Shown here: positions 14,787 to 41,978 of the stretch, piece after piece
Position numbering within the stretch: position 1 is the first letter of the stretch
How the letters are laid out: every line of letters begins with the position of its first letter
Assembly: GCF_058153355.1 (NCBI RefSeq)
Contig: NZ_CM177019.1
Direction: 5' to 3' (one strand)
Length of the DNA: 64,000 nt
Program-made: the position numbers and the translations under genes
The notes under the pieces: model-generated
What the model was told of the DNA's origin: nothing
Databases searched by the model: none
What the model saw: only the letters and a program-made list of their open reading frames with translations

Positions 14787-14901
14787 TGAAGCGGCGCACG
14801 AAAAACGCGAAAGCGTTTCACGATAAATGCGAAAACTTTAGCTTTCGCGCTTCAAATGAAACAGCAGTATTAATTACTGCTTTTTATTCATTGCATGGGG
14901 A

Positions 14902-15627
14902 TCACTTAGGGTATGGCTGAACCCTGAATAGTTTGGTATTTAGCCGCTTCCTTGCTCGCTTGTTCAGGAATCTGATATAGCGATACTGATTAAATTTGTG
15001 CACTACGGCACGCTCTTTATTAGCCCGTAAATACACGCCTCGTTGTCCACCTCGCTTAATCGCGTTCATCGTTATCTCGTGATACCACTCACCATCCAGC
15101 TCGTAGAACGTACTTTCATGACTGCCAATAAAATCAAAATTCGACGCCTGATACACAACGCCTGCGCGTCCGCAGCGTTCGTCAGCAAAGGACTGAACCC
15201 ACTCCACTGACGGATACAGTAATCTGATAACTTTCAGCGCGTAGCTGATGGCCCGTGATTCAGAGTTGCGGGGCATGTCGTCGTGTAGCCACATGCGGTT
15301 CAACTCCATATAGCCCCGGTTATCCGTTTCAAGCACGACACGACGACCTGAGTTGGGGTTAAGGGCATATCCCCACTGGAGAACGCCAACCAGATCGCGC
15401 CCGCTGAATACTCCCAGGTGGAGGTAAGAGTTATTCACAAAACGGCGGGAATAGTGCTTTGTCTGAATAATTGTGCGGGCCAGCCAGCAGGATATGGTTT
15501 CAACGCGCAGCTCCTTTGAACCATAGCCAACAATCTGGCCTTCATACTCAATAACGCACGGTTTCGTCAGAATGCGTGATTTTTTCTCTTTTCCCACAAT
15601 GTTTCTCCGTGGGATGCTCGCAGGCAT
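14902..15627 (-). CDS. mom: Mu Mom DNA-modification protein (anti-restriction)
   Basis: Last gene before the Mu right end; 5' end overlaps com, the characteristic com-mom arrangement. True start may be internal to the 241-aa ORF. Confidence 0.8.
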
Positions 15628-15736
15628 TCAGCATTATGATGTGACGTTTGCAACGCGGACACCTGATTTCAATGTGATCAAAGGAATCCGCCTTAAATAA
15701 CAGTTTGTTGCAGTTTTTACAGCGAATTGATTTCAT
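15548..15736 (-). CDS. com: Mu Com zinc-finger translational activator of mom
   Basis: 62 aa with CxxC...CxxC zinc finger ([13 protein letters not shown]...CPRCK); overlaps the mom start. Confidence 0.85.
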
Positions 15737-15804
15737 CTCACCTCCTTTGCATCAATTCGCCACTATCTTAAAAAACATCATGGGTTGAGTGTGGTTATTG
15801 GGGC

Positions 15805-15850
15805 ATAATCGATCTGTATTACCGATCGATTTGATTGATTCGATCGTCGT
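15805..15850. promoter_or_regulatory. mom/com upstream regulatory region with three clustered GATC (Dam) sites
   Basis: GATC at 15811, 15824 and 15842 within 35 bp, just upstream of com; matches the known Dam/OxyR-controlled region of the Mu mom promoter. Confidence 0.6.
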
Positions 15851-16412
15851 TTTCTATATGCGTTCGTTTCGCGGGGTGTTTTTTATACAGAGTTGACAGG
15901 GCCACATCGTAGATCAATGCAACCTGCTTGCGGGGGATTCCTTGTGCTAATAAACGCCCGGCCTGCTCCCATTCCGCTTTGGTTAGTTTAGGTGGTCGCC
16001 CACCAATACGGCCTTTATTTCTGGCGGCAGCAAGTCCAGCCATCGTTCGCTCGATGATTAGTTCTCGTTCCATTTCAGCTAGGGCACCCATAACGTGGAA
16101 GAAAAAACGCCCCATTGGAGAAGATGTATCTATGCTGTCGGTCAGACTGCGAAAATTAATCCCTCGCTCCCGTAGTTCCCCGACGAGAGAAATCAGATGT
16201 TTCATGCTTCGCCCGAGACGATCCAGTTTCCAGACAACCAGCGTGTCACCTTTTTGAAGGCGCTTTAAAGCGCGTTTTAATCCCGGTCGGTCTGTCTTTG
16301 TCCCGCTTAATTTATCTTCAAATATTTGTTCACATCCTGCACAAACAAGAGCGTTTCGTTGCAGGTCTGTATTCTGGTCATTTGTTGATACCCTTACATA
16401 GCCAATCAGCAC
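15819..16412 (-). CDS. gin: Gin serine recombinase (DNA invertase of the G segment)
   Basis: Resolvase/invertase N-terminus (LIGYVRVSTNDQ, catalytic Ser) and C-terminal HTH; likely GTG start at 16412 preceded by GGGAGA (ORF track 15819..16430). Confidence 0.85.
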   Translation of the reverse strand: MLIGYVRVSTNDQNTDLQRNALVCAGCEQIFEDKLSGTKTDRPGLKRALKRLQKGDTLVVWKLDRLGRSMKHLISLVGELRERGINFRSLTDSIDTSSPMGRFFFHVMGALAEMERELIIERTMAGLAAARNKGRIGGRPPKLTKAEWEQAGRLLAQGIPRKQVALIYDVALSTLYKKHPAKRTHIENDDRINQIDR

Positions 16413-16466
16413 GCTGAATCTCCCGTCCAAAAGCGCAAATCATGCCATGCAGGCCGGAAACGGCCA

Positions 16467-16500
16467 TTATCTAAAACCTCGGTTTACAGGAAACGGTAAA
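16467..16500. repeat. gix recombination site, gin-proximal inverted repeat bounding the G segment
   Basis: ttatctaaaacctcggtttacaggaaacggtaaa is the near-perfect inverted copy (2 mismatches) of 19537..19570. Confidence 0.8.
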
Positions 16501-16537
16501 CAAGGCTGGTAACGCTGTTCAAAAGACAGGTGATACC

Positions 16538-17503
16538 TTGTCCGGTGGACTTACTTTTGAAAACGACTCAATCCTTGCCTGGATTCGAAATACTGACTGG
16601 GCAAAGATTGGGTTTAAAAATAATTCGGATGCAGACACCGATTCCTACATGTGGTTTGAAACAGGCGACAACGGCAATGAATATTTCAAATGGAGACACC
16701 ACCTCACTGGCGGCCGGGTTAAAGACCTGATGAATCTTAAATGGGATGCTCTGTATGTTCTTGTGAAAGCCCTTTTCAGCAGTGAAGTGAAAATATCGAC
16801 AGTCAATGCACTGAGGATATTTAATTCATCTTTTGGTGCCATTTTTCGTCGTTCTGAAGAATGCCTGCATATCATCCCTACACGAGAGAATGAGGGGGAA
16901 AATGGTGATATAGGGCCACTACGCCCCTTTACGCTTAATCTCAGAACTGGCCGGATAAGCATGGGGCATGGTCTTGATGTTACAGGGGATATATTTGCAA
17001 ACCGTTTTGCAATTAACAGTAGTACCGGCATGTGGATTCATATGCGTGACCAGAATGTTATTCTGGGCCGTAATGCGGTATCCAACGATGGTGCGCAGGC
17101 ATTGCTTCGCCAGGACCATACCGACCGTAAATTCGTAATTGGTGGGCTGGGGAATAAGCAATTTGGCATCTACATGATTAATAACTCAAGGACAGCCAAT
17201 GGCACCGATGGTCAGGCGTACATGGATAATAACGGTAACTGGCTTTGTGGTGCGCAAGTTATTCCCGGCAATTATGGCAATTTTGACTCCAGATATGTGA
17301 AAGATGTCCGGCTTGGCTCACAGCAATATTATGGTGTGAATAACTGGCAAACATGGAATTTCCAGTGCCCGTCAGGCTATGTACTGACGGGGATTAACGT
17401 ACAGGATACCGGAAAAAACTCTGCCGATAATATTGCAGGCGTTCATTACAGGCCAGTGCAAAAGTATATAAATGGCACCTGGTATAATGTGGCGAGTATT
17501 TAA
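16538..17503 (+). CDS. Alternative tail-fibre variable part S'v (silent in this orientation)
   Basis: Inside the G segment on the opposite strand to S; C-terminus ([10 protein letters not shown]) resembles the S C-terminus (NGTWYNAGSI). A complete gene would form only after inversion. Confidence 0.6.
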
Positions 17504-18032
17504 TATGATGCACTTAAAGAACATAAAAGCGGGTAATGCTAAAACACCAGAACAGTATGAGTTAACAAAGAAACACGGAGTTATCTGGCTTTACTCTGAG
17601 GACGGAAAAAACTGGTATGAGGAAGTGAAGAACTTTCAGCCGGATACAATAAAGATTGTTTACGACGAAAATAATATTATTGTCGCCGTCACTAAAGATG
17701 CCTCCACGCTTAATCCTGAAGGTTTTAGCGTCGTTGAAATCCCCGATATAACAGCTAACCGTCGTGCCGATGATTCAGGGAAGTGGATGTTTAAGGACGG
17801 AGCGGTGGTCAGGAGGACTTATACAGCAGACGAACAGCAGCAACAGGCCGAATCACAAAAGGCCGAGTTACTTTCCGAAGCTGAATCAGTCATCCAGCCG
17901 CTGGAACGCGCTGTCAGGCTGAATATGGCAACAGACGAGGAACGCACACGACTGGAAGCATGGGAACGCTACAGTGTTCTGATCAGCCGTGTGGATACGG
18001 CAAAGCCCGAATGGCCACAAAAACCTGAGTAA
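17472..18032 (+). CDS. Alternative tail-fibre assembly protein U' (silent in this orientation)
   Basis: 186 aa paralogue of U ([11 protein letters not shown]... versus MMHLKNISAGN...), inside the G segment. Confidence 0.7.
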
Positions 18033-18060
18033 AAATTAAGGCCCGATATCGGGCCTTCTC

Positions 18061-18594
18061 TCATTCTGGTTGTTCGGGAAACGTTACTGGCAGGCTGGAG
18101 GTGTCTGTGGATTCGACCTTCTGCGCATAGAGCATCCACTCGGTTAATTTTTGTTTATTCTCGTCGGAAATAATGCCCAGCCGTAGCTGTGAGTCCCACA
18201 GCTGGGTTTTATCCCTGACGAGCTGTAGCAGGCTTTGCTTTTCATTTTCCGCTTGTTGCCTCTGCTCTTCCCCGGTATAAGTTCGCTTTATCACTACGCC
18301 ATCTTTGAACATCCATTTACCTGAAATATCAGCCCGGCGATTTGCTGTAATATCAGGAACCTCAACGACGCTTGCGCCTTCCGGATTAATTGCTGAAACA
18401 TCCTTTTCAATACAAATAATAACGCCGTTGTGGTCATAGACCATTTTCAACGTATCAGGCTGAAAGTTCTTTTGTTCCTCATACCAGTTTTTCCCATCCT
18501 CTGTATAAAGCCATTTGATGTTAAATTGCTTTGTTAGCTGGTATTGCTCTTTTGTTTCAGGATTACCAGCAGAAATGTTTTTTAAGTGCATCAT
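18061..18594 (-). CDS. U: Tail-fibre assembly protein U
   Basis: 177 aa, directly downstream of S on the same strand. Confidence 0.8.
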   Translation of the reverse strand: MMHLKNISAGNPETKEQYQLTKQFNIKWLYTEDGKNWYEEQKNFQPDTLKMVYDHNGVIICIEKDVSAINPEGASVVEVPDITANRRADISGKWMFKDGVVIKRTYTGEEQRQQAENEKQSLLQLVRDKTQLWDSQLRLGIISDENKQKLTEWMLYAQKVESTDTSSLPVTFPEQPE

Positions 18595-18596
18595 CG

Positions 18597-20063
18597 TTAA
18601 ATACTCCCCGCGTTATACCACGTCCCATTAATGCAATACTGAACTGGCCTTGCCTGAGTTGTATCAATTAGTTCATCTCTGTTTGAGTTAACGGAACCGG
18701 TAACAACATAACCTGACCTGTCAGACCAGCCGGGACCATTCCATGTCTGAACAGATGACAGACCACCAAGGCGAATACCTGTAATAAACCTTGAGTTACA
18801 TTCTGCCTGCGTATATGCGCCAACATCTCTCGCTGATGGCTTGCGTGTTGTGGTGTAAAACTCTGACCAGCCAGCCTCAAATCCATAACCATCACGCGCT
18901 GAACGATAAAAAATACCGCCGTTCCTGTAATTCACACGGAACTGTACGGCAGGGCAACTCCCCGTATTCATATTGAAGTGGAGGATTAATGTTGTTGCGC
19001 CACCAATATTTGCGTTATAGACCCCGCTATTCCAGTTCCAGCCAACGGCTTTGTCGTTTCCGACGGTATTTCCTGTTTGCCCTAAAGCAAATGCAGGCTG
19101 CTGGTTTTTCGTGTTGTAGTCTCGTCGCCAGCCAGGAGCGTAAGCATCACCATGATTAATATAAGTGAATTGAGCGTTAGTGATTCCGCCGCCGCTGGAC
19201 GTGCCCGGCGTGGTAACGCGTATGGTCATTGCGCCGCGGGTGCCAATAACTTCCACCACAGCACCTGCAAGACAAATATTTCCGCAACCTGTATCTGTAA
19301 TGACCTTATTATTTGCATAAGCCCATGAGCCTTTGCACATCCAGTAAGGATGGTTAAATGCTCCCTGACTCTCCAGCCACGAAATAAATTGCGCAGTTGT
19401 CCAGACCTGACTATCGCCACCAATATCCACCCATGCGCTATATGCGCGACAGGCACCAATATTTTTGGTGAAGGTATCTTTTCCTGGAATATCTGCGCCG
19501 TTCTGGTTTTTCTGTAATGCGCCAGAAGCCTGATTTACCGTTTCCTGCAAACCGAGGTTTTGGATAAACAGCGGCTTATTGGGAATATCTGCTCCGTTCC
19601 GGTCTTTTGCCAGACGGGCATTGGCATTATCCATCGCAATTTTCACCGCTTTTGCGGTGGCTGCCAGCGTTTCACTGGGGCTGTCAGTGGCACTGGTTAG
19701 CTGAACGAGTCCTTTTTTGTTCAGGCTGGCATCATAGATATCCAGATTTTCACGTGCTGTACGCTGTGCTGATGCCCCGGCAGTTTTAATTTCGCTGAGG
19801 TTATTTTTTATCAGCAGCGCGTTCTTGTTCATGATGGCTTTAATGGACAGTGCAAGCTGGTTTAATTTTGTTTTATCCGGTTGAATACCGGCTTCTTCCA
19901 GCGTGTTTAATAACTCCGCCTGCACAATATTAAACCAGTCCATGCCGGGCCATGTGATAACATTATTCCCGTCACCTTCTGAAAACCAGCGAACGATAGC
20001 ACTACGCTTGGCGGATACGGGCGGCATGACGGTTACGCCGCTGTCGTTATCAATATAAAACAT
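18597..20063 (-). CDS. S: Tail fibre protein S (constant part outside G, variable part inside G)
   Basis: 488 aa; ORF crosses the gix boundary at about 19570. Confidence 0.8.
   Translation of the reverse strand: MFYIDNDSGVTVMPPVSAKRSAIVRWFSEGDGNNVITWPGMDWFNIVQAELLNTLEEAGIQPDKTKLNQLALSIKAIMNKNALLIKNNLSEIKTAGASAQRTARENLDIYDASLNKKGLVQLTSATDSPSETLAATAKAVKIAMDNANARLAKDRNGADIPNKPLFIQNLGLQETVNQASGALQKNQNGADIPGKDTFTKNIGACRAYSAWVDIGGDSQVWTTAQFISWLESQGAFNHPYWMCKGSWAYANNKVITDTGCGNICLAGAVVEVIGTRGAMTIRVTTPGTSSGGGITNAQFTYINHGDAYAPGWRRDYNTKNQQPAFALGQTGNTVGNDKAVGWNWNSGVYNANIGGATTLILHFNMNTGSCPAVQFRVNYRNGGIFYRSARDGYGFEAGWSEFYTTTRKPSARDVGAYTQAECNSRFITGIRLGGLSSVQTWNGPGWSDRSGYVVTGSVNSNRDELIDTTQARPVQYCINGTWYNAGSI
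19537..19570. repeat. gix recombination site, S-proximal inverted repeat
   Basis: tttaccgtttcctgcaaaccgaggttttggataaaca; inverted copy of 16467..16500. Confidence 0.8.
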
Positions 20064-20605
20064 TAGTTATCTCCGTCATGGTAAACAAATTTATAAATCT
20101 GATGTGCGGGTTTATATTTCTCCAGTAAACATTCCAGTGCACCCGATTCATAAACACGTAACGGCGTCAGAACATTATCCAGCACCGTTGCGTTGCGATA
20201 ATTTTTAATACCGTAAATATTGACCTGCGTAACCCACTGGCCTTCTGTGGAATCCGTCAGTCTGACGGTAAAACCGTACTGCGCAGCCAGCCATTCATAA
20301 AAGCGCCGACTCAGATTGCCGGTCATACGCATTTTATTTGCGGCAGCCCGCTGGCGTTCGGACAGGGTGCCGTTTTCGCTTGTACAGTCCGGCAACCCCA
20401 GAAATGATTCCCACTCCCTCAGATACCAGCGGGATGTGGACGGGAAACGCTCCCGCAGCATTTGCCGCGCATCATCCGCCGCAGTGGCAATCACATCGCT
20501 GATGGCCTGCGCCAGCGCAGATAATTTGCTGTCGGGGCTTTTATTCCAGGCAAGCCCTGACGGCAGTAATTGCAGAAAGGCAGCCTGATACGGTGTTACA
20601 GCCAT
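20063..20605 (-). CDS. Mu tail/baseplate protein (R position)
   Basis: 180 aa, between W and S in Mu gene order. Confidence 0.6.
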   Translation of the reverse strand: MAVTPYQAAFLQLLPSGLAWNKSPDSKLSALAQAISDVIATAADDARQMLRERFPSTSRWYLREWESFLGLPDCTSENGTLSERQRAAANKMRMTGNLSRRFYEWLAAQYGFTVRLTDSTEGQWVTQVNIYGIKNYRNATVLDNVLTPLRVYESGALECLLEKYKPAHQIYKFVYHDGDN

Positions 20606-21678
20606 TCAATTGTCCCCGGTGTTAACAGTTCCGTATTCTCCGAACGCCGGATCTCTGTCGGGAAACGCACTTCAAAATCATCCAGACCGGTAACACCTGC
20701 CACCGCACGGATAATACGGGAGGGGGCAAGTGTGCCGCCCGGCGTCACTTCATTAAAAAACATGGTATTAATGGCGTGGGTAATAGCCTGTTTCAGTTCG
20801 ACAGTCTTCGGTGATATATAAATCCGTGGATTTACCGGCTTTGCCTTTGGCGCAAATACCGTGACATTTACACCGTCAGGCTGTCCGACAATCAGGCCGG
20901 TTATCGGGTCAGTATGACCGGCGATATAATCCGCCACGCGTTCCACATCTGCCGGTTGTGGAAAAATATTGCTCCGGTTATCCATAACAAACGTCACCCC
21001 GACTGTGCCACCGCCTTTCCATGCCGGAAAACACCAGGCACGGGTAACGCCGCTGACTTCACGCGCCCAGCGAACATAATCAAACTGATTACCGCCGAAC
21101 GGAGGATACTGGACACGATATTCCAGCCGTGACAGCAGCTCCGCTGCACTCTCAATATCAGCCCCACCGGAAAACCCTTTTACAGTGATGGCATCGGAAA
21201 CAACACAGGCAACCGGGGTGATCAACGTTAAAAGGGTATTCTCACCGGTATTTCCTGCCTCACCGGCAGCCAGTGCGGTAACGGTAATTTCCGTCGTTCC
21301 TGCACGGCCAATCACAATGGCATCAGCCAGACTGTAAACCACACCATCAGCACGCTGCCAGCGTGTACCGGCAGGAATGGTGGTCGCTGCCGATGTGGTG
21401 ACAGTCAGCGGGCCGCTGGCGGCTGTCGCCTGTTTGCGGCGCACGCCCCAGAACCGGCAGTGCTCCAGCAACTCATCTTCATCTGCTGTCGACGGGATAA
21501 TCTGCCGTCCAACCCATGAAATATGCTCGTGACAACCGGCAGCAAGGCCCGCCTGAGCATAAGCAATGGCACTCAGCGTTTTTTCACGGGCCTGAGGCCA
21601 GCTACCCGGCAGGCGCTGTTCAATATTCTGTTCTGTACGGGCAATCAGCGATGATAATGTCGGTGGTGAATAAGCCAT
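20596..21678 (-). CDS. Baseplate wedge protein (gpJ-like), Mu W position
   Basis: 360 aa; order V-W-R-S. Confidence 0.65.
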   Translation of the reverse strand: MAYSPPTLSSLIARTEQNIEQRLPGSWPQAREKTLSAIAYAQAGLAAGCHEHISWVGRQIIPSTADEDELLEHCRFWGVRRKQATAASGPLTVTTSAATTIPAGTRWQRADGVVYSLADAIVIGRAGTTEITVTALAAGEAGNTGENTLLTLITPVACVVSDAITVKGFSGGADIESAAELLSRLEYRVQYPPFGGNQFDYVRWAREVSGVTRAWCFPAWKGGGTVGVTFVMDNRSNIFPQPADVERVADYIAGHTDPITGLIVGQPDGVNVTVFAPKAKPVNPRIYISPKTVELKQAITHAINTMFFNEVTPGGTLAPSRIIRAVAGVTGLDDFEVRFPTEIRRSENTELLTPGTIEWL

Positions 21679-22116
21679 TTAAACCCCGTTAAATACTGTT
21701 TTAAACTCATAAGGAATAACGGAACCATCCGGTAATGTCAGTGCAATGTAGAGGTATAACCAGCCCTGATGTAACTGTTCCGCTCTGACGTTAACCGCAC
21801 TTACCCGGCCCGCTGTTTTCAGCCATTCCAGCGCCTCTTCGGCATACTCTCTGGCACGTTCCGGCGTATCCTGTGTGGTTTTTTCACGTGATAACAGCCA
21901 CAACCGCGAACCGATGGGACGGTCGCGGTAACTGTCACCCCACCATCCACGGCGATCATCTGAACCATCCGGCAGCGTGTCAGAATCCAGCGTGCGCCGG
22001 TCGGTAAACAGGGAGATTGTCACATCGGTTGTCAGGCTGTCGTCGGTCAGCATATCAATGCCATCCTGTGCAATATCGCCGCGTCCGTTCGTCCAGATAA
22101 TGGCTAAATCGGTCAT
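21679..22116 (-). CDS. Baseplate protein (gp25/lysozyme-like fold), Mu V position
   Basis: 145 aa; order. Confidence 0.6.
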   Translation of the reverse strand: MTDLAIIWTNGRGDIAQDGIDMLTDDSLTTDVTISLFTDRRTLDSDTLPDGSDDRRGWWGDSYRDRPIGSRLWLLSREKTTQDTPERAREYAEEALEWLKTAGRVSAVNVRAEQLHQGWLYLYIALTLPDGSVIPYEFKTVFNGV

Positions 22117-22706
22117 TGCATCGGCCCTGTGGTTCCGCCGCTGTCGCCACGGTGGATATGCTTATCCGTCGATTTGCCATTGATGATGGCATCCGGGGCA
22201 GTAATATTGCTGTCGAACTGGCTTTTACCTTTAACGCCCAGACCTTTCTGGATCTCAACGTCGCCGGTAAACGTGGTTCTGGGTGTATCAACGGTCATAC
22301 TTTCATCAGCGTAAATCTCAACCGTTTTACAGGTAATGACGCAGCGCCCGTCCTTTGTCAGCCTGATACGATGCCCCTCGTGGTGGTAAATGCCTGCATC
22401 ACCCGGTTCAAGATTTGTCGGGCGGTAGCGGCGATCTTCCACCACAACGGCAATCCCCTGATCACGTTGTGCACCCACACAGGCAATCAGCGCCTCTGCG
22501 CCCGGCAGGGGAACGCTGAAATGCCCGTAATTTTGCAGGCGCTCCACTTCATCAGATTCCTCATCATCCAGCAGACCGACCTGCAGGTTCTGAACCTTTC
22601 GCCCGTCGTGAATCACGTTAACAACGGCACGCGCAAGCATCAGACGCACACGACGCATCAGCGGTGTCAGCAGGCGGTTCATGGCGGAATCATTTACTCT
22701 TTCCAC
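22113..22706 (-). CDS. Baseplate spike/assembly protein, Mu Q position
   Basis: 197 aa; order. Confidence 0.6.
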   Translation of the reverse strand: MERVNDSAMNRLLTPLMRRVRLMLARAVVNVIHDGRKVQNLQVGLLDDEESDEVERLQNYGHFSVPLPGAEALIACVGAQRDQGIAVVVEDRRYRPTNLEPGDAGIYHHEGHRIRLTKDGRCVITCKTVEIYADESMTVDTPRTTFTGDVEIQKGLGVKGKSQFDSNITAPDAIINGKSTDKHIHRGDSGGTTGPMQ

Positions 22707-23833
22707 GGCGGCGTTTTCTCCGGGTGTCTGCGATAATAATCTTCAACCAGCGCATCAATACCGCCGTTACTGTCGCCGCCTTTCCTGTTTTTACGGTCGC
22801 TTTCAACCGGCACCAGAAAGCCTTCGCGTGGTGCAAGGCTGACGCGGGTTTTCAGCCCGTCCTGGTCATTCAGTATCAGGGTGACTTTGCTGACCAGTAA
22901 TTCCGTGGTTTTGATGGCATATTTCGAGGCATCAATAGTGACCAGCAGGTTCGGCATCCAGAGTTGCCCGTCCCTGCGTTTCCATCCGTCAATTTCTGCC
23001 TCAAAAGTGATGGATTTTGCCAGTCTGCGGCGTTGCTCACGCAGGGCGCGGGCCTGTGCATCCTTCGCCGTAATTTTGCTGTCAGCAATGATGATCATCG
23101 GTCTGTAACGGGTCACATCACTGTCAGTGGCGGTCCCTTTCCGGGAAACGATACTTTTCGCATCAATATCATCACCCTCAGCACCGTTCGCGCGGGCATA
23201 CCCCTTGACGATGTATTCGCTGAACCGGTCGCGGAAGTTTTCCTCAAAATCCAGTGTCAGCAGATTTTCTCCGAGAACCAGCTCATCAGTGGCTGTGCTG
23301 GCAGCCCGGCTGAATACCAGCTCTCCGGCGGCATTGCTGGTCATCAGTACACCGCGTGCGCGGGAGGCGCGCACCAGCGCCTCATAAACGGTTTCTGAAT
23401 GGTCCAGCGTGAAGCCGGGAAAAGCTGCCGAACTTTCCTTATCGGAAAGCTCCCAGCGAACGGTAACGCCATAAGGGGCGCACAGGTCACGCGCGATCTG
23501 CTCCAGTGTGCGGTTTTTCCACTGTCCACCACTGTAAACGGCAGCACAGTCAATCAGGTCAGCCGTTTTGTCACGTCCGGCGACAGTGATTTTCATACTG
23601 TCAGCGGTCATCTGGCGTCGCCGTGAATCGATATAACCGGTGCAGACAATCTGCCCCCCGATTTCCAGCGTGAACGCCTTCCCCGGTGCCAGCCCGGATA
23701 AATCCGTACCCGGTGGCACGTTCACCCCCAGCTCAAAATATCCGGCTACGGATTCAATCGAGCGGGTGACAGAGACTGACGTCCAGCCGGTAAAAAGCCT
23801 GCCATCCGTTCGCAGTGTGACGGTATTACTCAT
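22694..23833 (-). CDS. Baseplate hub protein, Mu P position
   Basis: 379 aa; order. Confidence 0.65.
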
Positions 23834-25313
23834 TAATCACCTCAATACTGACGCCACCGGGAACAAACAACGGGTTGCTGATACCATTCCTGCGGGCCAG
23901 CCGTTGCCAGTTCCGGCTGTTTCCTGTGTAACGGTACAGGGCCACCATTGCAGGCATCGTCTCCGGCAGGCGGTGCGTTTCACTTCCCGCCAGTTGCAGC
24001 CCACGTTTTTCCAGGTCGGCAACAACCAGCAGACGCAGTTGCGTAAGCTGAACGCTGTCTGTCGAAAAGCCCTGCTCAGATGCCGTCAGAATGACGGTAT
24101 CCAGTGCAGCCCCCAGCATGGCGGCTGTTTTTCCGATATCGGACACACTTTCAAATACCGGGGGCGTGGCTGTACCACTGTCTGAAAAGGATACCTGTGA
24201 AAAGCCGCCGTCCGGGGTTATGGTAGTTAACTGTAACTGTCCCTGTGTGACGGTAGCAGATGTGCTGCTGGCCCCGCTGGCTGTGCCGGTTGTGGTGGAC
24301 GGGGCATCCAGTACAGGTGTACGGGCGGCATTATCCATCCGGCGACTGAAATCCAGTGCCGCAGTCAGTGCCTGGCTGGCAGCTTCTGCCCGGTATGTCT
24401 GCGCCGCTGCCAGCATGACGTAGTTCAGTGTGGCAATATTTTTTTCTGCAACCGGACTGTTGTACGAGGTTGTGATTGCCCCCTGTCTGCCTGCGGTGGC
24501 GGCATGGCGACGTTCGAATCGCTGCGCCAGACGGTTCCATGTGGAAAATGCTGTCCGGGTATCGCATAACGATGAAACGCCGGACAGCGCCCCCATCAGC
24601 GAGGAGGCCAGCATGGCAGGCTGGTTAATCAGGCTGGTCACAGAGCCTTTCATCGCAGAAAGCGATCCCATCAGACCGCTGACAGTCTGCGTAACCCCCA
24701 GATTGTCCACCGCATCACTGATATCATCGATGACACCGGTTACAGCTTCCATCACGGCGGTTGCCGCCGCAGTGCCATCTTTTACGGTCTGCCAGACAGA
24801 GGACAGCGTATCCCCCAGAGAACCGGTTACAGCAACAGCCTGTGCCGGTACGGCTGCACTGGTGTCTGTTTCTGCGTCCGGGGCAGTATCCTGCAACGAC
24901 GGATAAACGGTAACGGTGAACGCGTAATAATTCAGTTCATCCGCTTTAGTGCGGCATTCCCATGAATCCACCATGACGTCCACAGTGCCGAAATCAGGAT
25001 GTACCAGCTCACCGCTGCCCGGAGCATCAAGAGCATCCATCAGCGCATCCGCTTCATCTCTGGCTGTTTCTGCGTTACTGTTCAGAATGCAGGCGCTGAA
25101 TGTACGGGAGCGAAGCTTTTTCCCCAGGTCATTGACGCCGCCGGTATCACGTAACGGGTACTCGCGTTTAACCAAGCGACGTCCGCCAGCCTGTTTTTGC
25201 TCCTCGATGACGAGAAACGGCACGTTACGGAACGTGCCTTTGCCGGTTGTTTTCCTGCCTCCACCGGTTTTATCCCGGACAGCATTAACGGCATTTAAAG
25301 CATCTTCAAACAT
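23826..25313 (-). CDS. Mu N-position protein (DNA circularisation / tail protein)
   Basis: 495 aa; immediately downstream of the tape measure gene. Confidence 0.65.
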
Positions 25314-25317
25314 GGTT

Positions 25318-27483
25318 TTACCAGCCCGTAATGTAGTTATCGCCCGCGTAAATATTCAGCCCCATACCATCCCCGGTGACGCGGGAACTGGTCAGACGTA
25401 ACCCCTCGCCAAGTTCGACGCGCAGCGAGGCTTCCGCATTGACTTTTTGTTCCTGCGGTTCCTTATCCGTGGCCGTCCATTTCTGATACAGGTCGGTTAC
25501 AAAACCGCCCAGATACTCCCCGGCGACACTGCCCAGCGTGGCACCGGCAACCGTACCCAGCGGTCCGGCAAGGCTGCCAACGGCACCGCCGAGCCATGCA
25601 CCGGCTGTACTGCCAATTGCTCCTGCTTTTTCATGGGCTGACGCCTGCTCATCCATCAGGACGGGGGCAAGCTGGAGTGCCCCCATTACCGGGCCACCCA
25701 GACGTGACAACGCACGACAGGCACCTTTGCCCATCCAGCCCAGCGCCCCGGCACCTTTTGCCACAACCCGACCGATCGCACTGCCTGCAAGTTTGTTTCC
25801 GATACCGGAAAACCACCCGCCAGCGGCACGCCCGGCATCAGCCAGCTTTCCGACCGTTCCCGTAACCAGTTGCCCGGCAGCACTGCCTGCAAGTCTGCTC
25901 AGAAGACCGGATTTACCGGGTAAAGGTAATGGTGCAGGCCGTGCTGTTACCGGTACGCCGGGTGGGGGTAATGCCAGTACAGGGCGTGGTGCAGGTAATG
26001 CCAGCGGCTGTGGCCCGGACAGCAATAACGGCTGGCGGGGTAACAGCGGGGCCATTCTTCCGCCGCTCCGTCCGCGACGACCGCCGCCACTCCCGTAGCC
26101 ACCAAATCCACGGGGCCAGTTGATGACAAACACACGCTGAATGCCGGTGCCCTGCAACAGCGTCTCAGACGTCATGGCATCCGGCACCGGCAGACCTGCC
26201 CGCCCACGTTTGCGGTTCCGCATCCAGCGCCACATACGACGCCCGGTTTTAAACGGATAACTGGCAACCTGCCATGAGGGTTTTGCCACGGCCCAGCCTG
26301 CTCTCAGGGCTTTATTGGCAAGCCAGACAGACACCAGAACAGCAGCCAGTTTTTTCAGGCTGACAATATTCTGGTCAACCCATGCCAGCGCATCTTTACC
26401 CGGTTTCAGCCAGCGCCATAATTCCTGCGCCGCGATTTTCACCGTTCTGAATGTGGTCAGAAACTTCTGACCAATGTTTTGCGCCAGTGCGTCAAGTTCC
26501 CCGGATTTATCCGCCATGTCGTGCCAGTCAAGCACCCGGCGCATCTCGTTCTTGATTTCTTCAAAGGGGCCGCTGTTGGCCACCTTTGTGCGAAACTCAA
26601 GCAGGTTGCCCTCCATCTGGGCCATCATCCCGTCCCAGGAGTTCATGGCAGCCGCCTGTGCGCCTTTTGACTGTTCCAGTAAGATTCTGAACACCGTCAG
26701 GATGGATTTCAGGCCCAGCTTGCCCTTTGTACCCAGATCACGGATTTTTTTCTCATCCTCACCCGTTGCATCTGCCAGCACCTTGTAGACGTTGATACCG
26801 TAGCCGGTCAGCAGGTTGGCGTCCGCCGCTGTGATTTGCTGACGGGCAAACATCTGTTTGAACTGTAACGAAGCCCCCTGTGCAGTGGGTAAATCCCAGC
26901 CGTGCATCGCCCCCTGGTTCTGTAGCATGGTGATGAACTGTTTTACCTGGGCATCAGTCATGCCAAACGCAGTTGATGTGCGGATCTCCTGCAGAACACC
27001 ACCCAGCCCCCAGGTGGTTTCTTTTGCGTTCTGCTTCGCCCACGCCATCATGGCCTGTGCTCTGGCCTTATCGCCGTGATAGAGCGAGTTCATGGCGATA
27101 ATCTGCTGCTCACGCTGGGCGGCTGCACCAATAAACAGTTTATTGGCGGTGTAACCCACGCCAGCGATACCCAGCGCCCCGGCTGACAGCATTCGGAATG
27201 TACGGGTTGACAGAGAACCCATTCTGTCAATGGCACCAGAAACGCGCACAACCTCCATACGCAGGGCACGCAGGGAACTTTGTCCGCTACGGGACAGGGC
27301 GTTTATCTGGTTCGAATACTGGCGGGAACGCCGGGAAAGATTGCCATTAAGATCAATAATGACAGACGCTTTTAAGCGTTTCCCGGTCACAGAAATCTCC
27401 TGATTTAACGGTGATATTGAGAGAGGGTTTTCGCCTGCTGGCAGTGCCGGAAAAAGCGGGACAGCGGGAGGGACAAGGCCCAT
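25318..27483 (-). CDS. Tail tape-measure protein
   Basis: 721 aa; coiled-coil N-terminal half, Gly/Pro/Ala-rich low-complexity C-terminal part; downstream of sheath, tube and chaperone genes. Confidence 0.7.
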
Positions 27484-27534
27484 TCCGGGCCACTTTTCAG
27501 AATAACGCCAATCGCTGTCGCCGCTTTCTCAATA

Positions 27535-27969
27535 TCATTCCGGCACCGCAGCCACTCGCCCCCGTTCTTGCGTCAGCGATGCTGCCACGGCCATGTCGTA
27601 CATTTCTGTGGCCAGCGACAGACGCTGGAAGTCATCGACGGACAGTTTACGCATCAGCGCCATCGACAACGGGCCTTTGATGCAGCCCACGCTGGCAATC
27701 TGTCGGCGCAGCATTTCCAGCCCCATCAGGGACGGGGAACTGACCAGCACCGGACCTTCCTTGCTCATTACCAGCTTTTCAGCAGCCACCTGGGCATCAA
27801 TCAGATCGCCTGCGGTCAGTTCACGCAGCGTCACGTCATACTGCATTTCAGTCTCGTCGCCGGTGCCGAACGGCAGGCCGTCTTTCAGTTTCAGCACGCC
27901 GGACTGAAGCTCTGCCACAATGCTGTCATGCAGTTCCTGTGCTTCCTCACTTAAATTCATTTCGTCCAT
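27535..27969 (-). CDS. Tail assembly chaperone-like protein
   Basis: 144 aa acidic protein between the tube and tape-measure genes. Confidence 0.5.
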   Translation of the reverse strand: MDEMNLSEEAQELHDSIVAELQSGVLKLKDGLPFGTGDETEMQYDVTLRELTAGDLIDAQVAAEKLVMSKEGPVLVSSPSLMGLEMLRRQIASVGCIKGPLSMALMRKLSVDDFQRLSLATEMYDMAVAASLTQERGRVAAVPE

Positions 27970-27978
27970 TGGTTCCCC

Positions 27979-28335
27979 TTATGCAATGCGTTTGCTTTGT
28001 TTTGCCATCAGTACCAGCGAAATTTCGCCGCCGTCGTTTTTCGGTTCATCTGCCTGCCAGGCATTCGCCATCATCCAGGTTTCACCGGTGTCTGCCTGAA
28101 ACTCTGCCGTGATGTTTTCCCAGCCGATGATTTCATCCAGACCGATATCACCACCGCCCGGAATTTTGCATTCCAGCTTTGCGGCACGTGGTTTACCTTT
28201 CCAGCCATAAACCCGCGAGCCGGTCACTTCTTCACGGGTGATGCCGGAAGGTGTGAAGGAGGCACCTTCCATCGTTTCAAGCTCCATGCCATTGACACGG
28301 ATGAACGCCACCCCCTGACGCTGATTTCCAGCCAT
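27979..28335 (-). CDS. M: Tail tube protein
   Basis: 118 aa directly downstream of the sheath gene. Confidence 0.75.
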   Translation of the reverse strand: MAGNQRQGVAFIRVNGMELETMEGASFTPSGITREEVTGSRVYGWKGKPRAAKLECKIPGGGDIGLDEIIGWENITAEFQADTGETWMMANAWQADEPKNDGGEISLVLMAKQSKRIA

Positions 28336-28344
28336 AAATGCTCC

Positions 28345-29832
28345 TTACAGAATGAACTGAACTTGTGCCGCGAAAATGCGGAACTGGTTAATCAGATTCG
28401 GGCCGCACAGCACATCAAGACGGTCTTTGTCGTCCTTGTTACGTGCCACATACAGCTCCTCTTTGAACGTGTCGAAATCCTCGACCAGTCCGGCGTTTTC
28501 CCATTCTTCAAACAGTGCCAGCAGCTCCGTTTTGATCACGGATGGCGTCACCACGGCCTGACCGGTGGCAAAGCGGGTGCCATCACTTGCCAGCTTGTAG
28601 TTCGGGAATTTCTGCGTGATGCGGGTTCGCAGCGAATAACGCAGATAACTCAGCGTGGCGATGGTATTCACGTTCAGATAAGACGGATCACTGTCACCGT
28701 ACTTGTTTGTGCGGTACATCGTGATCATGCGTTCAATCTGCATTTCACCACCATCATTCACGTTAAACGTGGAGATGCCGTCAAACAGCAGCGCATTACG
28801 TTCTGACCAGGTGAAACGATCCCCCACCGCAGGCGGCATTCTTCCGGGCAACGTCAGCGTCTGGAGTGGACGCGCCGGGTCGATGGAAAGCGCCTGGCTG
28901 GCAACGGCACACAGTGTGGCGGCGTACAGATATGACGGTTCCGGTGCACCGGCAATCCCCATACAGGAAATCAGATGGTCATTACGGCTGACACCAAACG
29001 TGGAAATATCCCCATACGTGCCGGACAGCACTGTCACGGCAAAGCCATCAGCCTGATTGACTGGTCCCCAGCGTTCCTGCAATTCAGTGCGTAACAGATT
29101 CAGGTTCGGTTCATCGGTATAGGGCATCACAATATATTTGTATTGCAGATCGCCCATTCCCGCGATACCTGCGCTGATATCCGGGTTGCCATTTTTCCCG
29201 GAGGCGGCTTTGAATGCCGTGATAATCCCGTAAGGGGTGGTTTCACCCGCGTAATAGTTCCAGCGCACGTCCACGGCAGATAATGCACCCGTAAATTTTG
29301 CACTCAGAACCACATCTGCATGGGTGTCATCATCTCCGCTGTCTGCGCGAACTTCTGCCGTCACCGGTAAATCCGGCTGGCCTTTGATTCGGGCAACCAG
29401 CAGGTCAGCCAGCGCCGCTCCCGTTGCACCTGCTGCGACAGATACCGCCAGTCGCTGACCGGCAATGTAAGTCACAAGCGAGCCGTTTTCGCCTGCCGTT
29501 CCGGACAGTGAGATTTCACCGACAGCAGCATTACCGGTGCCGTTCCCCTGCGGGATACACCACAGCTCCGCCACGCGGTTAGCGTTCAGGAATGCATCTG
29601 CCATCAGTGCCAGCATGGAACCCTGACCAAACGCCGCACTGGCCTGTGAGCCGGAACGGATACGGACAGGCACGTCTGGTGCCGCACTGGCTTTACTTCC
29701 GCTTTGCCCGAACATCAGCACGCGCTGACGGGGTGCCGGTGTTCCGCTGACGGCATTACTGTTATCAAATTCGATATACGTCAGAGGAACGCGAACATCT
29801 GACGGGATCGCGTTAAATGAAATATCGCTCAT
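28345..29832 (-). CDS. L: Contractile tail sheath protein
   Basis: 495 aa; position and size as Mu L. Confidence 0.8.
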
Positions 29833-30035
29833 TTCGATTTACTCCGTTTTTTCGGCGCAGTGTCGGTATCATCCGCCGTGTTTTCGGTGCTCCCGACTTC
29901 AACCACATCACCGGCTGCAAGGCGACGTATCCAGAAACTGTTACGGGGCTTTTCTTCTCCCTCAGACGCCAGTAATTTCATCGTGAGCGGGTCACGGATG
30001 GCTTTTCCCGCTGCGGGTTTAATTTTCAGCATCAT
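29829..30035 (-). CDS. Small Mu late protein (unknown function)
   Basis: 68 aa ORF overlapping its neighbours by a few bases; phage-operon packing. Confidence 0.4.
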
Positions 30036-30567
30036 GATCCTTTTCCTGATTCACATTGATATGTGCGGCAAATTCCGGGGTTTCGTCCGGGAATTTCCAG
30101 GTCTGCCAGTGGCGCTCGTAATCATCCAGCGAATCCATGTCCACCACGGACGGCAGCGGGGTAGTGCCACTGAACAGAACACCGTAAAGCACCACACCGG
30201 CATTGATACGGTTGTCGTCACAAAGATTTCTGACCTGCGTCAGTCTCATCCCGGTGGTCGGGCCAAACGTCTGACCGTTAACACCGGCAATCAGTCGCTC
30301 CACAATCTGATAAATACCGGGCCGGTTTACCTGTTCCCCGTTCAGCAACTCCGCCACGACAAAAAATGCCCAGCGACTTTCAACTTCCCGACGCGTACGC
30401 CCCTCACCACAGCCCATCCATGCCAGAAATACCGATGGCGGGGCCAGAAAGAGACGGTGCACATCCTCGTTAGTCCATGTGCCGGTAAGGGGTTCCACCT
30501 GCCGCAGGGTTGCCCCAAACAACTCACGAACGCGCGCCAGCAGTGCGGCTTCGGTTTCTTCCAGCAT
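30019..30567 (-). CDS. Head-tail joining/completion protein (Mu K position)
   Basis: 182 aa; order. Confidence 0.55.
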   Translation of the reverse strand: MLEETEAALLARVRELFGATLRQVEPLTGTWTNEDVHRLFLAPPSVFLAWMGCGEGRTRREVESRWAFFVVAELLNGEQVNRPGIYQIVERLIAGVNGQTFGPTTGMRLTQVRNLCDDNRINAGVVLYGVLFSGTTPLPSVVDMDSLDDYERHWQTWKFPDETPEFAAHINVNQEKDHDAEN

Positions 30568-30992
30568 CAGATAAACCCCTTCTGTTTTCGTGAGAAGACC
30601 GGCGCGTCAGACTGCACCTGCACAAGGTTTTCACCATCCGGCGAGGCTGCCGTCCTGCTTTCCACGCCGGGATCTGTTTTGCCATCGCGCACCTGTTCCA
30701 GCCAGCGCACTGTGTCCCTGTAGGCAGCGGTGATCTGCTCGGTGGGTTGTGATTCATTCAGATAAAACCAGGCCACCACGCAACACTGCCGTTTCAGCAG
30801 TGAGGGGACGACGGTAAGCGGCAGAACAAAGCGCGCGGCGAGATAGCCATCAATAAAGGCCGAAGCATCTGCCAGTGCCTGTTCTGCCACGGCATCATCC
30901 GGCTGCCCGTCCGCTGTTTTAGGGCGGGTGAGAATATCCAGCCGCGTACGTGTATAGCGGGCGCACAGGTCATTTACCGTCGCGTAATTCAT
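30567..30992 (-). CDS. Head-tail connector/completion protein (Mu J position)
   Basis: 141 aa; order. Confidence 0.55.
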   Translation of the reverse strand: MNYATVNDLCARYTRTRLDILTRPKTADGQPDDAVAEQALADASAFIDGYLAARFVLPLTVVPSLLKRQCCVVAWFYLNESQPTEQITAAYRDTVRWLEQVRDGKTDPGVESRTAASPDGENLVQVQSDAPVFSRKQKGFI

Positions 30993-31399
30993 GCATCCGC
31001 CTCAGCCTGCGCCGCTTTGATTTGCGCGCTGCTTACCGGTTCCCCCAGCGCCGCACTGACGGCTTTCACTTTGGGTTCCCCCCCTGCGGTAAAGTGTTCC
31101 GGGTTTGCCTTATCCAGACCGGCAACGGTCGCACGGATACGGGCGTTCAGATCGCCCACACCCAGAACGTCCAGCCCCCCAGCCTCAGCGAGCGTTTCTG
31201 CTGACGATGCAGATACCACAGACAGCACGCTGTCGGCACGAATGATCGCCAGTTGTTCTTCGGTGACTTCCACGGTGTTTTCGCCACGTGTAAAGGCGAT
31301 TCCGGCGCGGCGGTAGACCGGACGAAGGCATTTAATAATCGCCGTGCAAGTGATGCGAGAAGTGCCCAGCCGTTGTGAATTAAGCGAAGTGCCTGACAT
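30989..31399 (-). CDS. Head-associated protein downstream of the major capsid gene
   Basis: 136 aa; order. Confidence 0.5.
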   Translation of the reverse strand: MSGTSLNSQRLGTSRITCTAIIKCLRPVYRRAGIAFTRGENTVEVTEEQLAIIRADSVLSVVSASSAETLAEAGGLDVLGVGDLNARIRATVAGLDKANPEHFTAGGEPKVKAVSAALGEPVSSAQIKAAQAEADA

Positions 31400-31465
31400 A
31401 ACACATGCTCCTCCTTTTCCTTTAAATCAGGTTAAAAGGCGGTCTGAACCGCCTTTTAATGACGG

Positions 31466-32383
31466 TTACAGGTAGTCAGCGACAACCAGTTGCAGCTTGC
31501 CCTTCATCTCGTTGGAGACGGTGGTATTGCCATCCGCGAACAGTTCACGGTTAAGCAGTTGCTCTGCGGCTTTTTCCAGCCCGACCGGTACAACGATATG
31601 CGTCGGCTTCAGGCCCAGCTTCTTACCGCCATCACCTTCAAAAGATCGCATCAGTTGCCAGCCCTTCCAGAGGTTATCCAGCGTCAGATCGCCTTTTACC
31701 GCGACAGCCATCTGCCAGAAGCCGTAACCGGCAGCACGGCGGGCGCTGGCACCAAACAGGAACTCGTTATCCATAAAAACGTGGTCGTCATCGATACGGG
31801 TACGTGCGACCAGTTCCGGTTTGCGGCGCTCCTGGAAAATCAGCGGTTTGACTGCGCGGGAGCAGTCCAGCAGATAGAATGGCAGACCGCTGAAGCTGTC
31901 CTGCTCAACGATGTTGGAGGTATTAACCGCGCTGCCCGTGCCGTCCACATTCGGATATACCGGATGCTCCTTGTCGAAGAAGTTCTGACCGTCATAGCAG
32001 GGCTGGGTAAAGCCATCTTTCAGAAGTTTAAAAATCAGCTCATCCGGCTGAACTGCCGCAGAACGGCCCATCTCCTGAAAAATCGGCGCATAAATACCCA
32101 GATTGTCATCCTCGAAGTCATCACGGGAAATACCCACGGTGCCTTCAAACGTTTTATTGGCGATAGAGTAGCCATGCGCTTCCATTTGCTGAATGGTTCG
32201 CTTACCCACCCATTCTTTCAGGGTCGGGAATTTACCCAGCCAGCCATAGGTATTACTGCGGGTGGAAGAGTTCACCACCATTGCAATTTTGCTGTACTGC
32301 GACGGGGCGTCTTCAAGACCGCCCTGAAAATCCTTACGCCAGGAGGTCATCAGGGCTTTAATGGATGCCGGGGTGACAATCAT
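31466..32383 (-). CDS. T: Major capsid protein
   Basis: 305 aa; follows the protease/scaffold gene. Confidence 0.8.
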   Translation of the reverse strand: MIVTPASIKALMTSWRKDFQGGLEDAPSQYSKIAMVVNSSTRSNTYGWLGKFPTLKEWVGKRTIQQMEAHGYSIANKTFEGTVGISRDDFEDDNLGIYAPIFQEMGRSAAVQPDELIFKLLKDGFTQPCYDGQNFFDKEHPVYPNVDGTGSAVNTSNIVEQDSFSGLPFYLLDCSRAVKPLIFQERRKPELVARTRIDDDHVFMDNEFLFGASARRAAGYGFWQMAVAVKGDLTLDNLWKGWQLMRSFEGDGGKKLGLKPTHIVVPVGLEKAAEQLLNRELFADGNTTVSNEMKGKLQLVVADYL

Positions 32384-33465
32384 TTTTCTTGTTCCTGTTT
32401 CATTTTCAGATACTCAGCCTCAGTAATGCCGAGCGCCTTCACTGCTGCCTGTTCATCAGCAGACAGCACCGCCACTGCCGGTTTTTCCTGTGACAGGTTT
32501 TGTACCGTTGTGGTCTGCATGGCAGATAACGCAGCGATGGGCTGTTTTTTCTCAAGCTGTGCCGACAGTGCCGCCACGCCAATCTGACCGCCAAGCTGTT
32601 CCAGATAGGTACGTTCGCTTTTGAAAATGCGGCCTTCCTGTTCCGCCTTGTCCAGAACGGCGCTCAGGCTGGCTGTGGCGCTTTGTGCAGTCGCCTGTGC
32701 CAGTTCATCACGCAGGGCGTTGTAGCTTTCCACCGGGACGTATTTCGTCAGGTCAACGGCGGCGTTCTGTGCCTTTTCCAGTTCGGCGGATAACGACGCC
32801 ACTTTCCCGGCATTACTTTCCAGCGTGTCCAGTGCGGTCAGTGCCGCTGTTGCCTGTTCATCGGTGATGTCTGCATTTTCGGGGACAGTCACCCCAAGAC
32901 GCGCAAGCAGCTTGCGCAGCGTTTCATTCATGGGTTTGTTCTCCTGTTGAAGGATGTCGGGAAGGTCTGCCGCCAGTGCGGTCAGCTTTTTCATGCCGGT
33001 GGCACCGGGGTCATTGGTCAGCGCAGCAAGGCGGATTTGCAGCACCGCACCGGTGGCGGTGTCATACGGAAAAACCGCAGAGAGATAACCAAATTCGCCG
33101 TCATCGATGCGCTGCTGGGCCGCCGCCGTCCAGCGTGGGTGGATAAATAACCCTTCACCTTCACGCCACTGCATTTCATCGGCGTTAAACCAGCCAGCCG
33201 CGACGAGTTGTTCCGGGGGTAATCCTTTGTCCTTACGTAGCTGGTTATGCTCGTAATCAATCAGCACGTCCTGGTTGAGCGCGCGAACGCCTTCAACCAG
33301 ACGCCCGGCAATCTCACCGTCGATGAACCACCCCTGACCGTCTGTCACATCAAACGGACGACCATCACGGGCACTGAAATGACCGGCAGGCAATAGCTGG
33401 CACCAGCCGTCATCGTCAATGGACAGCGCACTCAGTGCGGCAATGCCAATCGCGTGTTTTTTCAT
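32380..33465 (-). CDS. I: Head maturation protease / scaffold protein
   Basis: 361 aa; Ala/Gln-rich coiled-coil C-terminal half (scaffold-like); immediately upstream of the capsid gene. Confidence 0.75.
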   Translation of the reverse strand: MKKHAIGIAALSALSIDDDGWCQLLPAGHFSARDGRPFDVTDGQGWFIDGEIAGRLVEGVRALNQDVLIDYEHNQLRKDKGLPPEQLVAAGWFNADEMQWREGEGLFIHPRWTAAAQQRIDDGEFGYLSAVFPYDTATGAVLQIRLAALTNDPGATGMKKLTALAADLPDILQQENKPMNETLRKLLARLGVTVPENADITDEQATAALTALDTLESNAGKVASLSAELEKAQNAAVDLTKYVPVESYNALRDELAQATAQSATASLSAVLDKAEQEGRIFKSERTYLEQLGGQIGVAALSAQLEKKQPIAALSAMQTTTVQNLSQEKPAVAVLSADEQAAVKALGITEAEYLKMKQEQEK

Positions 33466-38622: not shown

Positions 38623-38629
38623 AACCCTC

Positions 38630-41044: not shown

Positions 41045-41135
41045 GCTTCCCTGAAAAAATGCGCTGATGGCAGTCTAAAAAATCAGGTGACAGGTGCGGG
41101 ATTATGGTGACAGGAAATAACCGGCAGGATGCCGG

Positions 41136-41901: not shown

Positions 41902-41978
41902 GATGATTTCCCCCGGTACGGTTATTCATCACAGGATATTGAGGACGTAAAAAAAGCCGGATTAACCGGCTTTACTGT

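Follow-up and report, generated by a model that had tools for sequence, protein, structure and literature searches.

Orientation of the invertible tail-fibre segment in a Mu-like prophage: a probable G(−) state with the S'/U'-type pair predicted to be expressed

The tail-fibre region of a Mu-like prophage is a Mu G segment with its Gin/gix invertible switch, a system already known, and the segment very probably stands in the G(−) state, in which the S'/U'-type fibre and chaperone genes would be expressed and the S/U-type pair would be silent. Inversion of the G segment in Mu is a textbook site-specific recombination switch for phage host range. The prophage was found in a 64-kb stretch of DNA that was analyzed as a whole and is referred to here as the window. 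A first-pass annotation of this sequence had assigned the S/U-expressing orientation. Alignment to the Mu reference, which had been set beforehand as the test of that assignment, contradicts it: window positions 16467-19567 align reversed to the Mu G(+) reference genome (AF083977), whereas the flanks (14787-16507 and 19529-41689) align forward, and the constant part Sc proved to be joined to the other variable half. Sc runs into the S'-type part, which is followed by U', the G(−) arrangement as defined for Mu; neither an Sc joined to the S-type part and then U, nor collinearity of the segment with AF083977, as expected of G(+), was found. The result has little significance beyond correct annotation, and SfMu, the phage most closely related, was published earlier in this same orientation. 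The features are collected in Table 1.

Table 1. Positions of the prophage, the invertible segment, and associated features in the window.
Feature	Position	Strand	Remarks
Complete Mu-like prophage, 36,720 bp	14787..51506	−	Late genes on − strand; end-to-end alignment with Mu AF083977
mom	14902-15627	−	Position equivalent to annotated Mom of Mu and SfMu
com	15548-15736	−	Position equivalent to annotated Com of Mu and SfMu
gin, serine DNA invertase, 197 aa	15819..16412	−	GTG start as in Mu; adjoins segment
gin 5' end, putative recombinational enhancer (sis) region	16303..16412	−	First 110 nt of gin identical to Mu
gin-proximal 34-bp inverted repeat, TTATCTAAAACCTCGGTTTACAGGAAACGGTAAA	16467..16500	+	26-bp gix 16467-16492; crossover core TC 16479-16480
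Invertible G segment, core to core	16479..19555	.	Reversed vs Mu G(+) reference (alignment)
S-type variable part, predicted silent, 340 aa	16481..17503	+	Open frame from gix; no constant part, no own start codon
U-type chaperone, predicted silent, 175 aa	17505..18032	+	Pfam Caudo_TAP
GC-rich palindromic hairpin, AAGGCCCGATATCGGGCCTT	18038..18057	−	28-bp gap between convergent chaperone genes; consensus scan and direct reading
U'-type tail-fibre assembly chaperone, predicted expressed, 177 aa	18061..18594	−	Pfam Caudo_TAP
Tail-fibre gene, predicted expressed, 488 aa	18597..20063	−	ORF crosses gix; Pfam Phage_fiber_2, gp37_C
Sc-proximal 34-bp inverted repeat, − strand TTATCCAAAACCTCGGTTTGCAGGAAACGGTAAA	19534..19567	−	Within fibre gene; 26-bp gix 19542-19567

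Over its entire length the prophage aligns with Mu AF083977 (from 36717 down to 1) at ~97% identity, and a 5-bp target duplication, CCGGG (14782-14786 and 51507-51511), read directly from the sequence, lies on either side of it. Judged by sequence comparison, it is a mosaic of Mu and the Shigella phage SfMu. The com and mom genes (14902..15736) sit 3' of gin at the right end of the prophage. Beside the prophage lies yihS sequence, which shows at most 98.8% identity to any complete E. coli genome.

The two 34-bp repeats that bound the segment are mutually identical at 32 of 34 positions in inverted orientation, and their outer ends span 3,101 bp, which bears out the earlier description of near-perfect inverted gix repeats around a 3.1-kb segment; the segment end given at the time, 19570, lies 3 bp too far, the repeat ending at 19567. 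Each repeat carries a single mismatch to that of Mu: C6T in the outer half-site of the gin-proximal copy, a variant also present in SfMu and P88, and A20G in the inner half-site of the Sc-proximal copy. Either gix consists of two 12-bp half-sites on the two sides of a 2-bp core. The core of the Sc-proximal gix (19554-19555) reads GA on the + strand, i.e., TC, the same asymmetric dinucleotide as in the gin-proximal core. The Mu-type 34-bp repeat occurs exactly twice within the window, with 0 copies expected by chance, and a search of the same 64 kb for further cryptic gix sites, of the kind found in Min or shufflon-type multi-segment systems, yielded none besides these two.

Assignment of the two gene pairs is carried by homology to Mu. 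The fibre gene on the late strand comprises the constant part Sc (~19556-20063, aa 1-170) and a variable part (18597-19553) that shares 96.5% amino acid identity with Mu S'v; the whole fibre is 48.5% identical to Mu S, a value that owes much to the common constant part. It matches PDB entry 8ju3_A, "Tail fiber protein S,S'" (488 aa, E 3e-215), an assignment made solely by the PDB molecule name. The chaperone encoded downstream has 97.7% identity to Mu U', compared with 56% to Mu U. On the opposite strand, the variable part is 66% identical to residues 169-503 of Mu S and matches PDB entry 5yvq_A, the Mu "Tail fiber protein S" (E 1e-136); it shows 95% identity to SfMu ORF52 and 80-82% to the fibres of P88 and PhiR68_1. 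Its chaperone shares 89% identity with Mu U, as against 56% with Mu U'. ORF lengths agree with this division, as the late-strand pair has the 488 and 177 aa of Mu S' and U', and the opposite chaperone the 175 aa of Mu U. The layout that had been described, with one contiguous fibre and chaperone pair on the late strand and a paralogous pair opposite it lacking a constant region, thus stands, but the labels were reversed: what had been named S/U has its orthologues in Mu S'/U', and what had been named S'v/U' is of the S/U type.

Could the segment nonetheless be G(+), with S and U expressed and induction giving rise to phage with an E. coli K-12 host range? Sc does have one fibre/chaperone pair next to it on the late strand, and the name S/U could, without a reference, be fitted to either pair. 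We consider the probability of a G(+) segment close to nil, however, as the orthologues in Mu are S'/U' for the pair adjoining Sc and S/U for the other pair, the segment is reversed relative to the G(+) reference genome, the PDB matches split the pairs cleanly (8ju3 vs 5yvq), and the collinear SfMu was published as G(−), without plating on K-12 (PMC4406740).

Naming the halves S/U or S'/U' requires homology to a reference, gene layout alone being insufficient, and the choice of reference matters. In the P7 record the labels are reversed, in that the homologue aligning with the S'-type part of the window is called "Sv" in P7, and the one aligning with the S-type part "Sv prime"; prime and C(+)/C(−) names therefore do not transfer between phages. 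The C(+)/C(−) labels of P7 were considered for naming the orientation and rejected, since that record places "Sv" on the homologue of Mu S'.

From this anatomy we infer how the genes are expressed, how the segment would flip in this strain, and what host range would follow. The late transcript would run along the − strand from Sc across gix, continuing through the S'-type variable part to the U' chaperone gene, and the product of the G(−) state would be the 488-aa S' fibre. Because AATTTTTA follows the hairpin between the two chaperone genes on the − strand, the two elements together likely constitute a putative terminator of the late transcript past U'. The S-type variable part and U lie inverted, with neither promoter nor constant part, and would therefore be silent. 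Scanned for sigma-70 promoters, the segment gave 4 sites against 7.1 expected from shuffled controls; with sites not above the control level, the silent genes give no sign of independent expression.

Inversion would begin with Gin pairing the two inverted gix sites, aided by host Fis at an enhancer in the 5' end of gin. Strand exchange by Gin at the 2-bp core would then invert ~3.08 kb, so that Sc would be fused in frame with the alternative variable part and followed by U. Flipping the segment in silico does yield an in-frame Sc+Sv fibre of 510 aa, in place of the current 488-aa fusion, with a Caudo_TAP chaperone gene 3' of each. The invertase matches Pfam families Resolvase (E 2e-50; N-terminal catalytic domain, Ser9) and HTH_7 (E 2e-17; C-terminal), and contains the YVRVSTNDQ motif. 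It is 98% identical to Mu Gin, from which it differs by two substitutions (R39K and A185T) and a 4-aa C-terminal extension that is shared with SfMu. Within the gin 5' region, ~16327-16394 corresponds by homology to nt 19-86 of P7 cin, which the P7 record annotates as the enhancer.

Relatives of the segment have been captured in both states. Two assemblies of E. coli W, NC_017635 and NC_017664, share a 3,084-bp segment with 100% identity that stands in opposite orientations between identical flanks, and two IMG/VR contigs (L011 and L013) hold a 99.9% identical segment in opposite orientations relative to Sc. The GGTTTGCAGGAA half-site variant is common to the window and to this IMG/VR segment, in which T6 (outer half-site) and G20 (inner half-site) both occur. 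Intact Gin, a gin 5' region identical to that of Mu, the in-frame 510-aa product, and the opposite states in E. coli W are the grounds on which the switch looks functional. The general reading offered at first, of a Mu-type G segment with one pair expressed, one silent, and an adjacent Gin able to flip it, seems right on sequence grounds, apart from its orientation.

Two further readings concern what the G(−) arrangement can tell about the phage. In one, the gix substitutions or low Gin activity keep the segment in G(−) by blocking inversion or severely reducing it, which would leave the S-type module permanently silent, as a relic. Each repeat does depart from Mu by one substitution, and the authors of the SfMu study reported the same host range for lysates obtained by induction and by infection, and proposed that inversion might be reduced or abolished (PMC4406740). 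A genome search can be read in the same direction: the flipped Sc junction, used as an in-silico query, was absent at ≥99% from 5,426 complete E. coli genomes, its best match being 94.0%. The current Sc junction has a best match of 98.0% in that collection. Nevertheless, the core-adjacent SfMu mutation blamed for the impairment (C12G) is missing from the window, the T6 and G20 variants occur together in the IMG/VR segment seen in both orientations, and Gin and the enhancer region hardly differ from those of Mu. Long-term disuse is also at odds with the silent Sv and U frames, which are open throughout, and with the in-frame fusion that flipping produces. We accordingly regard a locked switch as quite improbable.

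The other reading, to which we give somewhat better than even chances, is that the orientation in the window is biologically uninformative, the culture being a mixture of both states of which the assembler reported one. Induced Mu lysogens are reported to yield both particle types in roughly equal amounts (PMC4406740), and the two E. coli W assemblies disagree in the state they show. A mixed culture does not conflict with the G(−) assignment, as the given sequence is unambiguously G(−); it only limits prediction. A single assembly captures one state of a population, and the state reported may be a minority or arbitrarily chosen.

The same caution governs host range. Virions from the G(−) state would carry an S'-family fibre and not the K-12-specific G(+) fibre. 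The reported hosts of Mu in the G(−) state are E. coli C, Citrobacter freundii, Shigella sonnei, Enterobacter, Serratia, and Erwinia, and those reported for SfMu are S. flexneri Y and 3b (PMC4406740). The earlier prediction of a G(+)-type host range on induction does not hold: the fibre encoded is of G(−) type, and induced Mu lysogens reportedly release both fibre types, the segment flipping during lysogenic growth (PMC4406740). Such flipping makes any one assembled orientation a snapshot of a flipping population, from which the host range after induction cannot be read.

The late-strand fibre differs by 14 amino acids from an in-silico Mu S' and by 14 from SfMu ORF49. At the 18 positions separating these two proteins it is evenly mosaic, with nine Mu-like and nine SfMu-like residues, and it carries five private substitutions. 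This S' allele and the divergent silent S-type allele together raise the prospect, which we hold to be unlikely but worth stating, that the fibre pair confers a host-range combination unlike that of Mu or SfMu. If so, flipping would toggle between two receptors uncharacterized so far for any Muvirus.

Comparison with known systems places the locus closest to Mu and SfMu. Mu has the same 34-bp repeats, save for the single substitutions described above, and the same gene order, in which Sc is followed by the inverted pairs Sv-U and U'-S'v and then by gin, com, and mom; outside the segment the prophage is ~97% identical to Mu, including the ends and the immunity region. The differences from Mu are that its deposited genome is G(+), that its Gin lacks the four extra C-terminal residues, and that the window has a divergent S-type part (66% amino acid identity) and, to a lesser degree, a divergent U-type chaperone (89%).

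In SfMu (KP010268), the right end (14787-20700 in the window) aligns as one collinear block at 97.1% identity and shows the same G(−) arrangement. The SfMu G segment has been reported to match Mu in the G(−) orientation, with 96, 97, 90, and 65% identity to S', U', U, and S, respectively (PMC4406740). Its U' (ORF50) is identical to that of the window, its silent Sv is 95% identical, and the C-terminal extension of Gin and the gin-side gix variant are held in common. Unlike the window, SfMu has the core-adjacent gix substitution C12G, whereas A20G belongs to the window; the expressed fibres are 14 residues apart, and the left (immunity) end of the window prophage, along with 30427-30989, is Mu-like.

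The Mu-like prophage of E. coli W has the same architecture with canonical gix sites, and the window is collinear with its NC_017635 state (488-aa fibre). That prophage carries Mu's own S-type allele, however, where the window has the SfMu-like one, and identity across 14783-20700 is 91.6%. More distant systems, namely the C segment of P1 and P7 with Cin and the segment of the P2-like phage P88, likewise combine a constant part with two inverted variable/chaperone modules and a Din-family invertase. P1/P7 and P88 differ from the window in phage backbone and in the constant part of the fibre, yet parts of the P88 and P7 segments are 88-92% identical at the DNA level to the window segment.

Comparison with phage Mu assigns the invertible tail-fibre segment to the G(−) state, in which S'/U' are expressed, and not to G(+), the S/U-expressing state called by the first-pass annotation; five independent lines of evidence concur. 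The variable part fused to the constant fibre part (Sc) shares 96.5% protein identity with Mu S'v, while the full expressed fibre is only 48.5% identical to Mu S, and the adjoining chaperone matches Mu U' at 97.7% versus 56% for Mu U. The silent frame and chaperone are 66% and 89% identical to Mu S and U, respectively. Protein lengths follow the same pattern, with the expressed pair (488/177 aa) having the lengths of Mu S'/U' and the silent chaperone (175 aa) that of Mu U. At the DNA level, window positions 16467-19567 run against both flanks when aligned to the G(+) reference genome (Mu, AF083977). Among solved structures, the expressed variable part hits PDB 8ju3_A ("Tail fiber protein S, Tail fiber protein S'", 488 aa; E 3e-215) and the silent part hits PDB 5yvq_A (Mu "Tail fiber protein S"; E 1e-136). 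Finally, the closest relative, Shigella phage SfMu (KP010268), is collinear in one piece with the prophage right end here, and its authors describe its G segment as matching Mu in G(−), S', U', U, and S being 96, 97, 90, and 65% identical (PMC4406740), figures nearly equaled by those of the window. The first-pass annotation had named Sc joined to the other variable half as the outcome that refutes its call, and this is the arrangement found by reference alignment. Repeat and ORF positions bear out its physical layout of inverted repeats enclosing two fibre/chaperone pairs, including the start at 16467, with the end at 19570 lying 3 bp beyond the repeat; the orientation call is the sole correction to its account.

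At the right end of the prophage, the − strand order is baseplate genes, fibre gene, chaperone gene, the + strand pair, gin, com, and mom. A T-run lies 3' of the hairpin separating the convergent chaperone genes on the − strand only, the direction now expressed, so that termination might be more or less efficient depending on how the segment is oriented.

Coordinates of the prophage and its tail-fibre switch
Feature	Position	Strand	Remarks
Target duplication CCGGG	14782-14786 and 51507-51511		5 bp, perfect; flanks prophage
Complete Mu-like prophage	14787-51506	late genes −	36,720 bp; end-to-end alignment to Mu
gin	15819-16412	−	com and mom follow in gene order
34-bp repeat, gin side	16467-16500		
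Silent variable frame	16481-17503	+	no start codon of its own; promoterless
Silent chaperone gene	17505-18032	+	175 aa
Hairpin	18038-18057		AAGGCCCGATATCGGGCCTT; perfect GC-rich palindrome in 28-bp gap between chaperone genes
Chaperone gene	18061-18594	−	177 aa
Expressed fibre gene	18597-20063	−	488 aa
34-bp repeat, Sc side	19534-19567		

The window contains exactly two copies of the Mu 34-bp inverted repeat, mutually inverted, with none expected in shuffled sequence. The copies agree at 32 of 34 positions, each carrying one substitution relative to Mu, and each holds a 26-bp gix site with the asymmetric core TC; no further AAACC-NN-GGTTT site occurs in the 64-kb window. The Sc-proximal gix lies within the fibre ORF and the second directly upstream of the promoterless frame. 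All sequence-testable defining features of the Mu Gin/gix/Fis inversion switch are present, and the system is, as judged from sequence, this well-known switch, without departure from what is already known.

The segment here can, we infer, flip as well. Gin has a GTG start like that of Mu, the catalytic YVRVSTNDQ motif, and Resolvase and HTH_7 domains; relative to Mu Gin it shows two substitutions and, at the C-terminus, a 4-aa extension common to SfMu. Over its first 110 nt, gin has the Mu sequence unchanged; in this family the Fis-dependent enhancer sits in that stretch, as annotated in the P7 cin record, and the stretch is a putative enhancer here. In silico inversion of 16479-19555 yields an in-frame Sc+Sv fibre of 510 aa followed by U. 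The SfMu authors suspected a substitution beside the crossover core of impairing inversion (PMC4406740); repeat comparison found this substitution absent at the window's gix sites. The two substitutions that do occur, T6 in the gin-side outer half-site and G20 in an inner half-site, are both present in an IMG/VR G segment carried by two viral contigs (L011 and L013) at 99.9% identity and in opposite orientation relative to Sc. Furthermore, a Mu-like prophage is shared by a pair of RefSeq E. coli W assemblies (NC_017635.1 292751-302351 and NC_017664.1 292759-302351), and its 3,084-bp segment, although 100% identical in the two, is inverted between identical flanks, which directly documents flipping in a lysogen.

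The G(−)-state E. coli W assembly annotates the silent S-type variable part as an incomplete pseudogene. Another viral contig (IMGVR_UViG_2690316161_000025) holds two directly oriented copies of the gin-side gix region with its flanks (3445-3480 and 11565-11600, 8,120 bp apart), a pattern suggestive of either duplication or misassembly in a Mu-like right end.

By sequence comparison, the virion produced in the state shown would carry an S'-family fibre. Plating of SfMu, whose fibre is S'-type, was confined to S. flexneri Y and 3b, with none on K-12 (PMC4406740). The expressed fibre differs by 14 residues from Mu S' and by 14 from SfMu ORF49, being Mu-like at nine and SfMu-like at nine of the 18 positions separating those two. 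The allele of the silent S-type part is divergent and shares 95% identity with SfMu ORF52, ~80% with the P88 and PhiR68_1 fibres, 75% with P7 "Sv prime", 66% with Mu S, and 64% with P1 S. Given this divergence in both fibre parts, the exact hosts of either state are not readable from sequence. Both particle types reportedly emerge from Mu lysogens on induction (PMC4406740), so the orientation in the assembly is a snapshot rather than a forecast of the lysate. Orientation labels do not carry over from one phage to another, S/S' and +/− being phage-specific conventions: the P7 record (AF503408 34228-40217) attaches "Sv" (C(+)) to the homologue of Mu S' and "Sv prime" to that of the S-type part, next to which the chaperone is split into Ua and Ub.

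The prophage is a mosaic, with a Mu-like backbone and immunity end and an SfMu-like G region. Mu positions 36717 down to 1 align across its whole length at ~97% identity; its right end (14787-20700) is collinear with SfMu in one piece (97.1%). The left (immunity/early) end, ~50000-51506, aligns to Mu and not to SfMu, the S-type half of the SfMu-like G segment has only ~82-87% DNA identity to Mu, and parts of the semi-essential early region (~43500-46700) match both phages poorly. Insertion was intergenic, between yihS (sulfoquinovose isomerase, 13507-14748) and a yihR-like epimerase gene, within a sulfoquinovose catabolism cluster. The yihS flank (13900-14786) reaches at best 98.8% identity among 5,426 complete E. 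coli genomes, most giving 90-95%, and the host may belong to an unusual Escherichia/Shigella lineage outside that collection.
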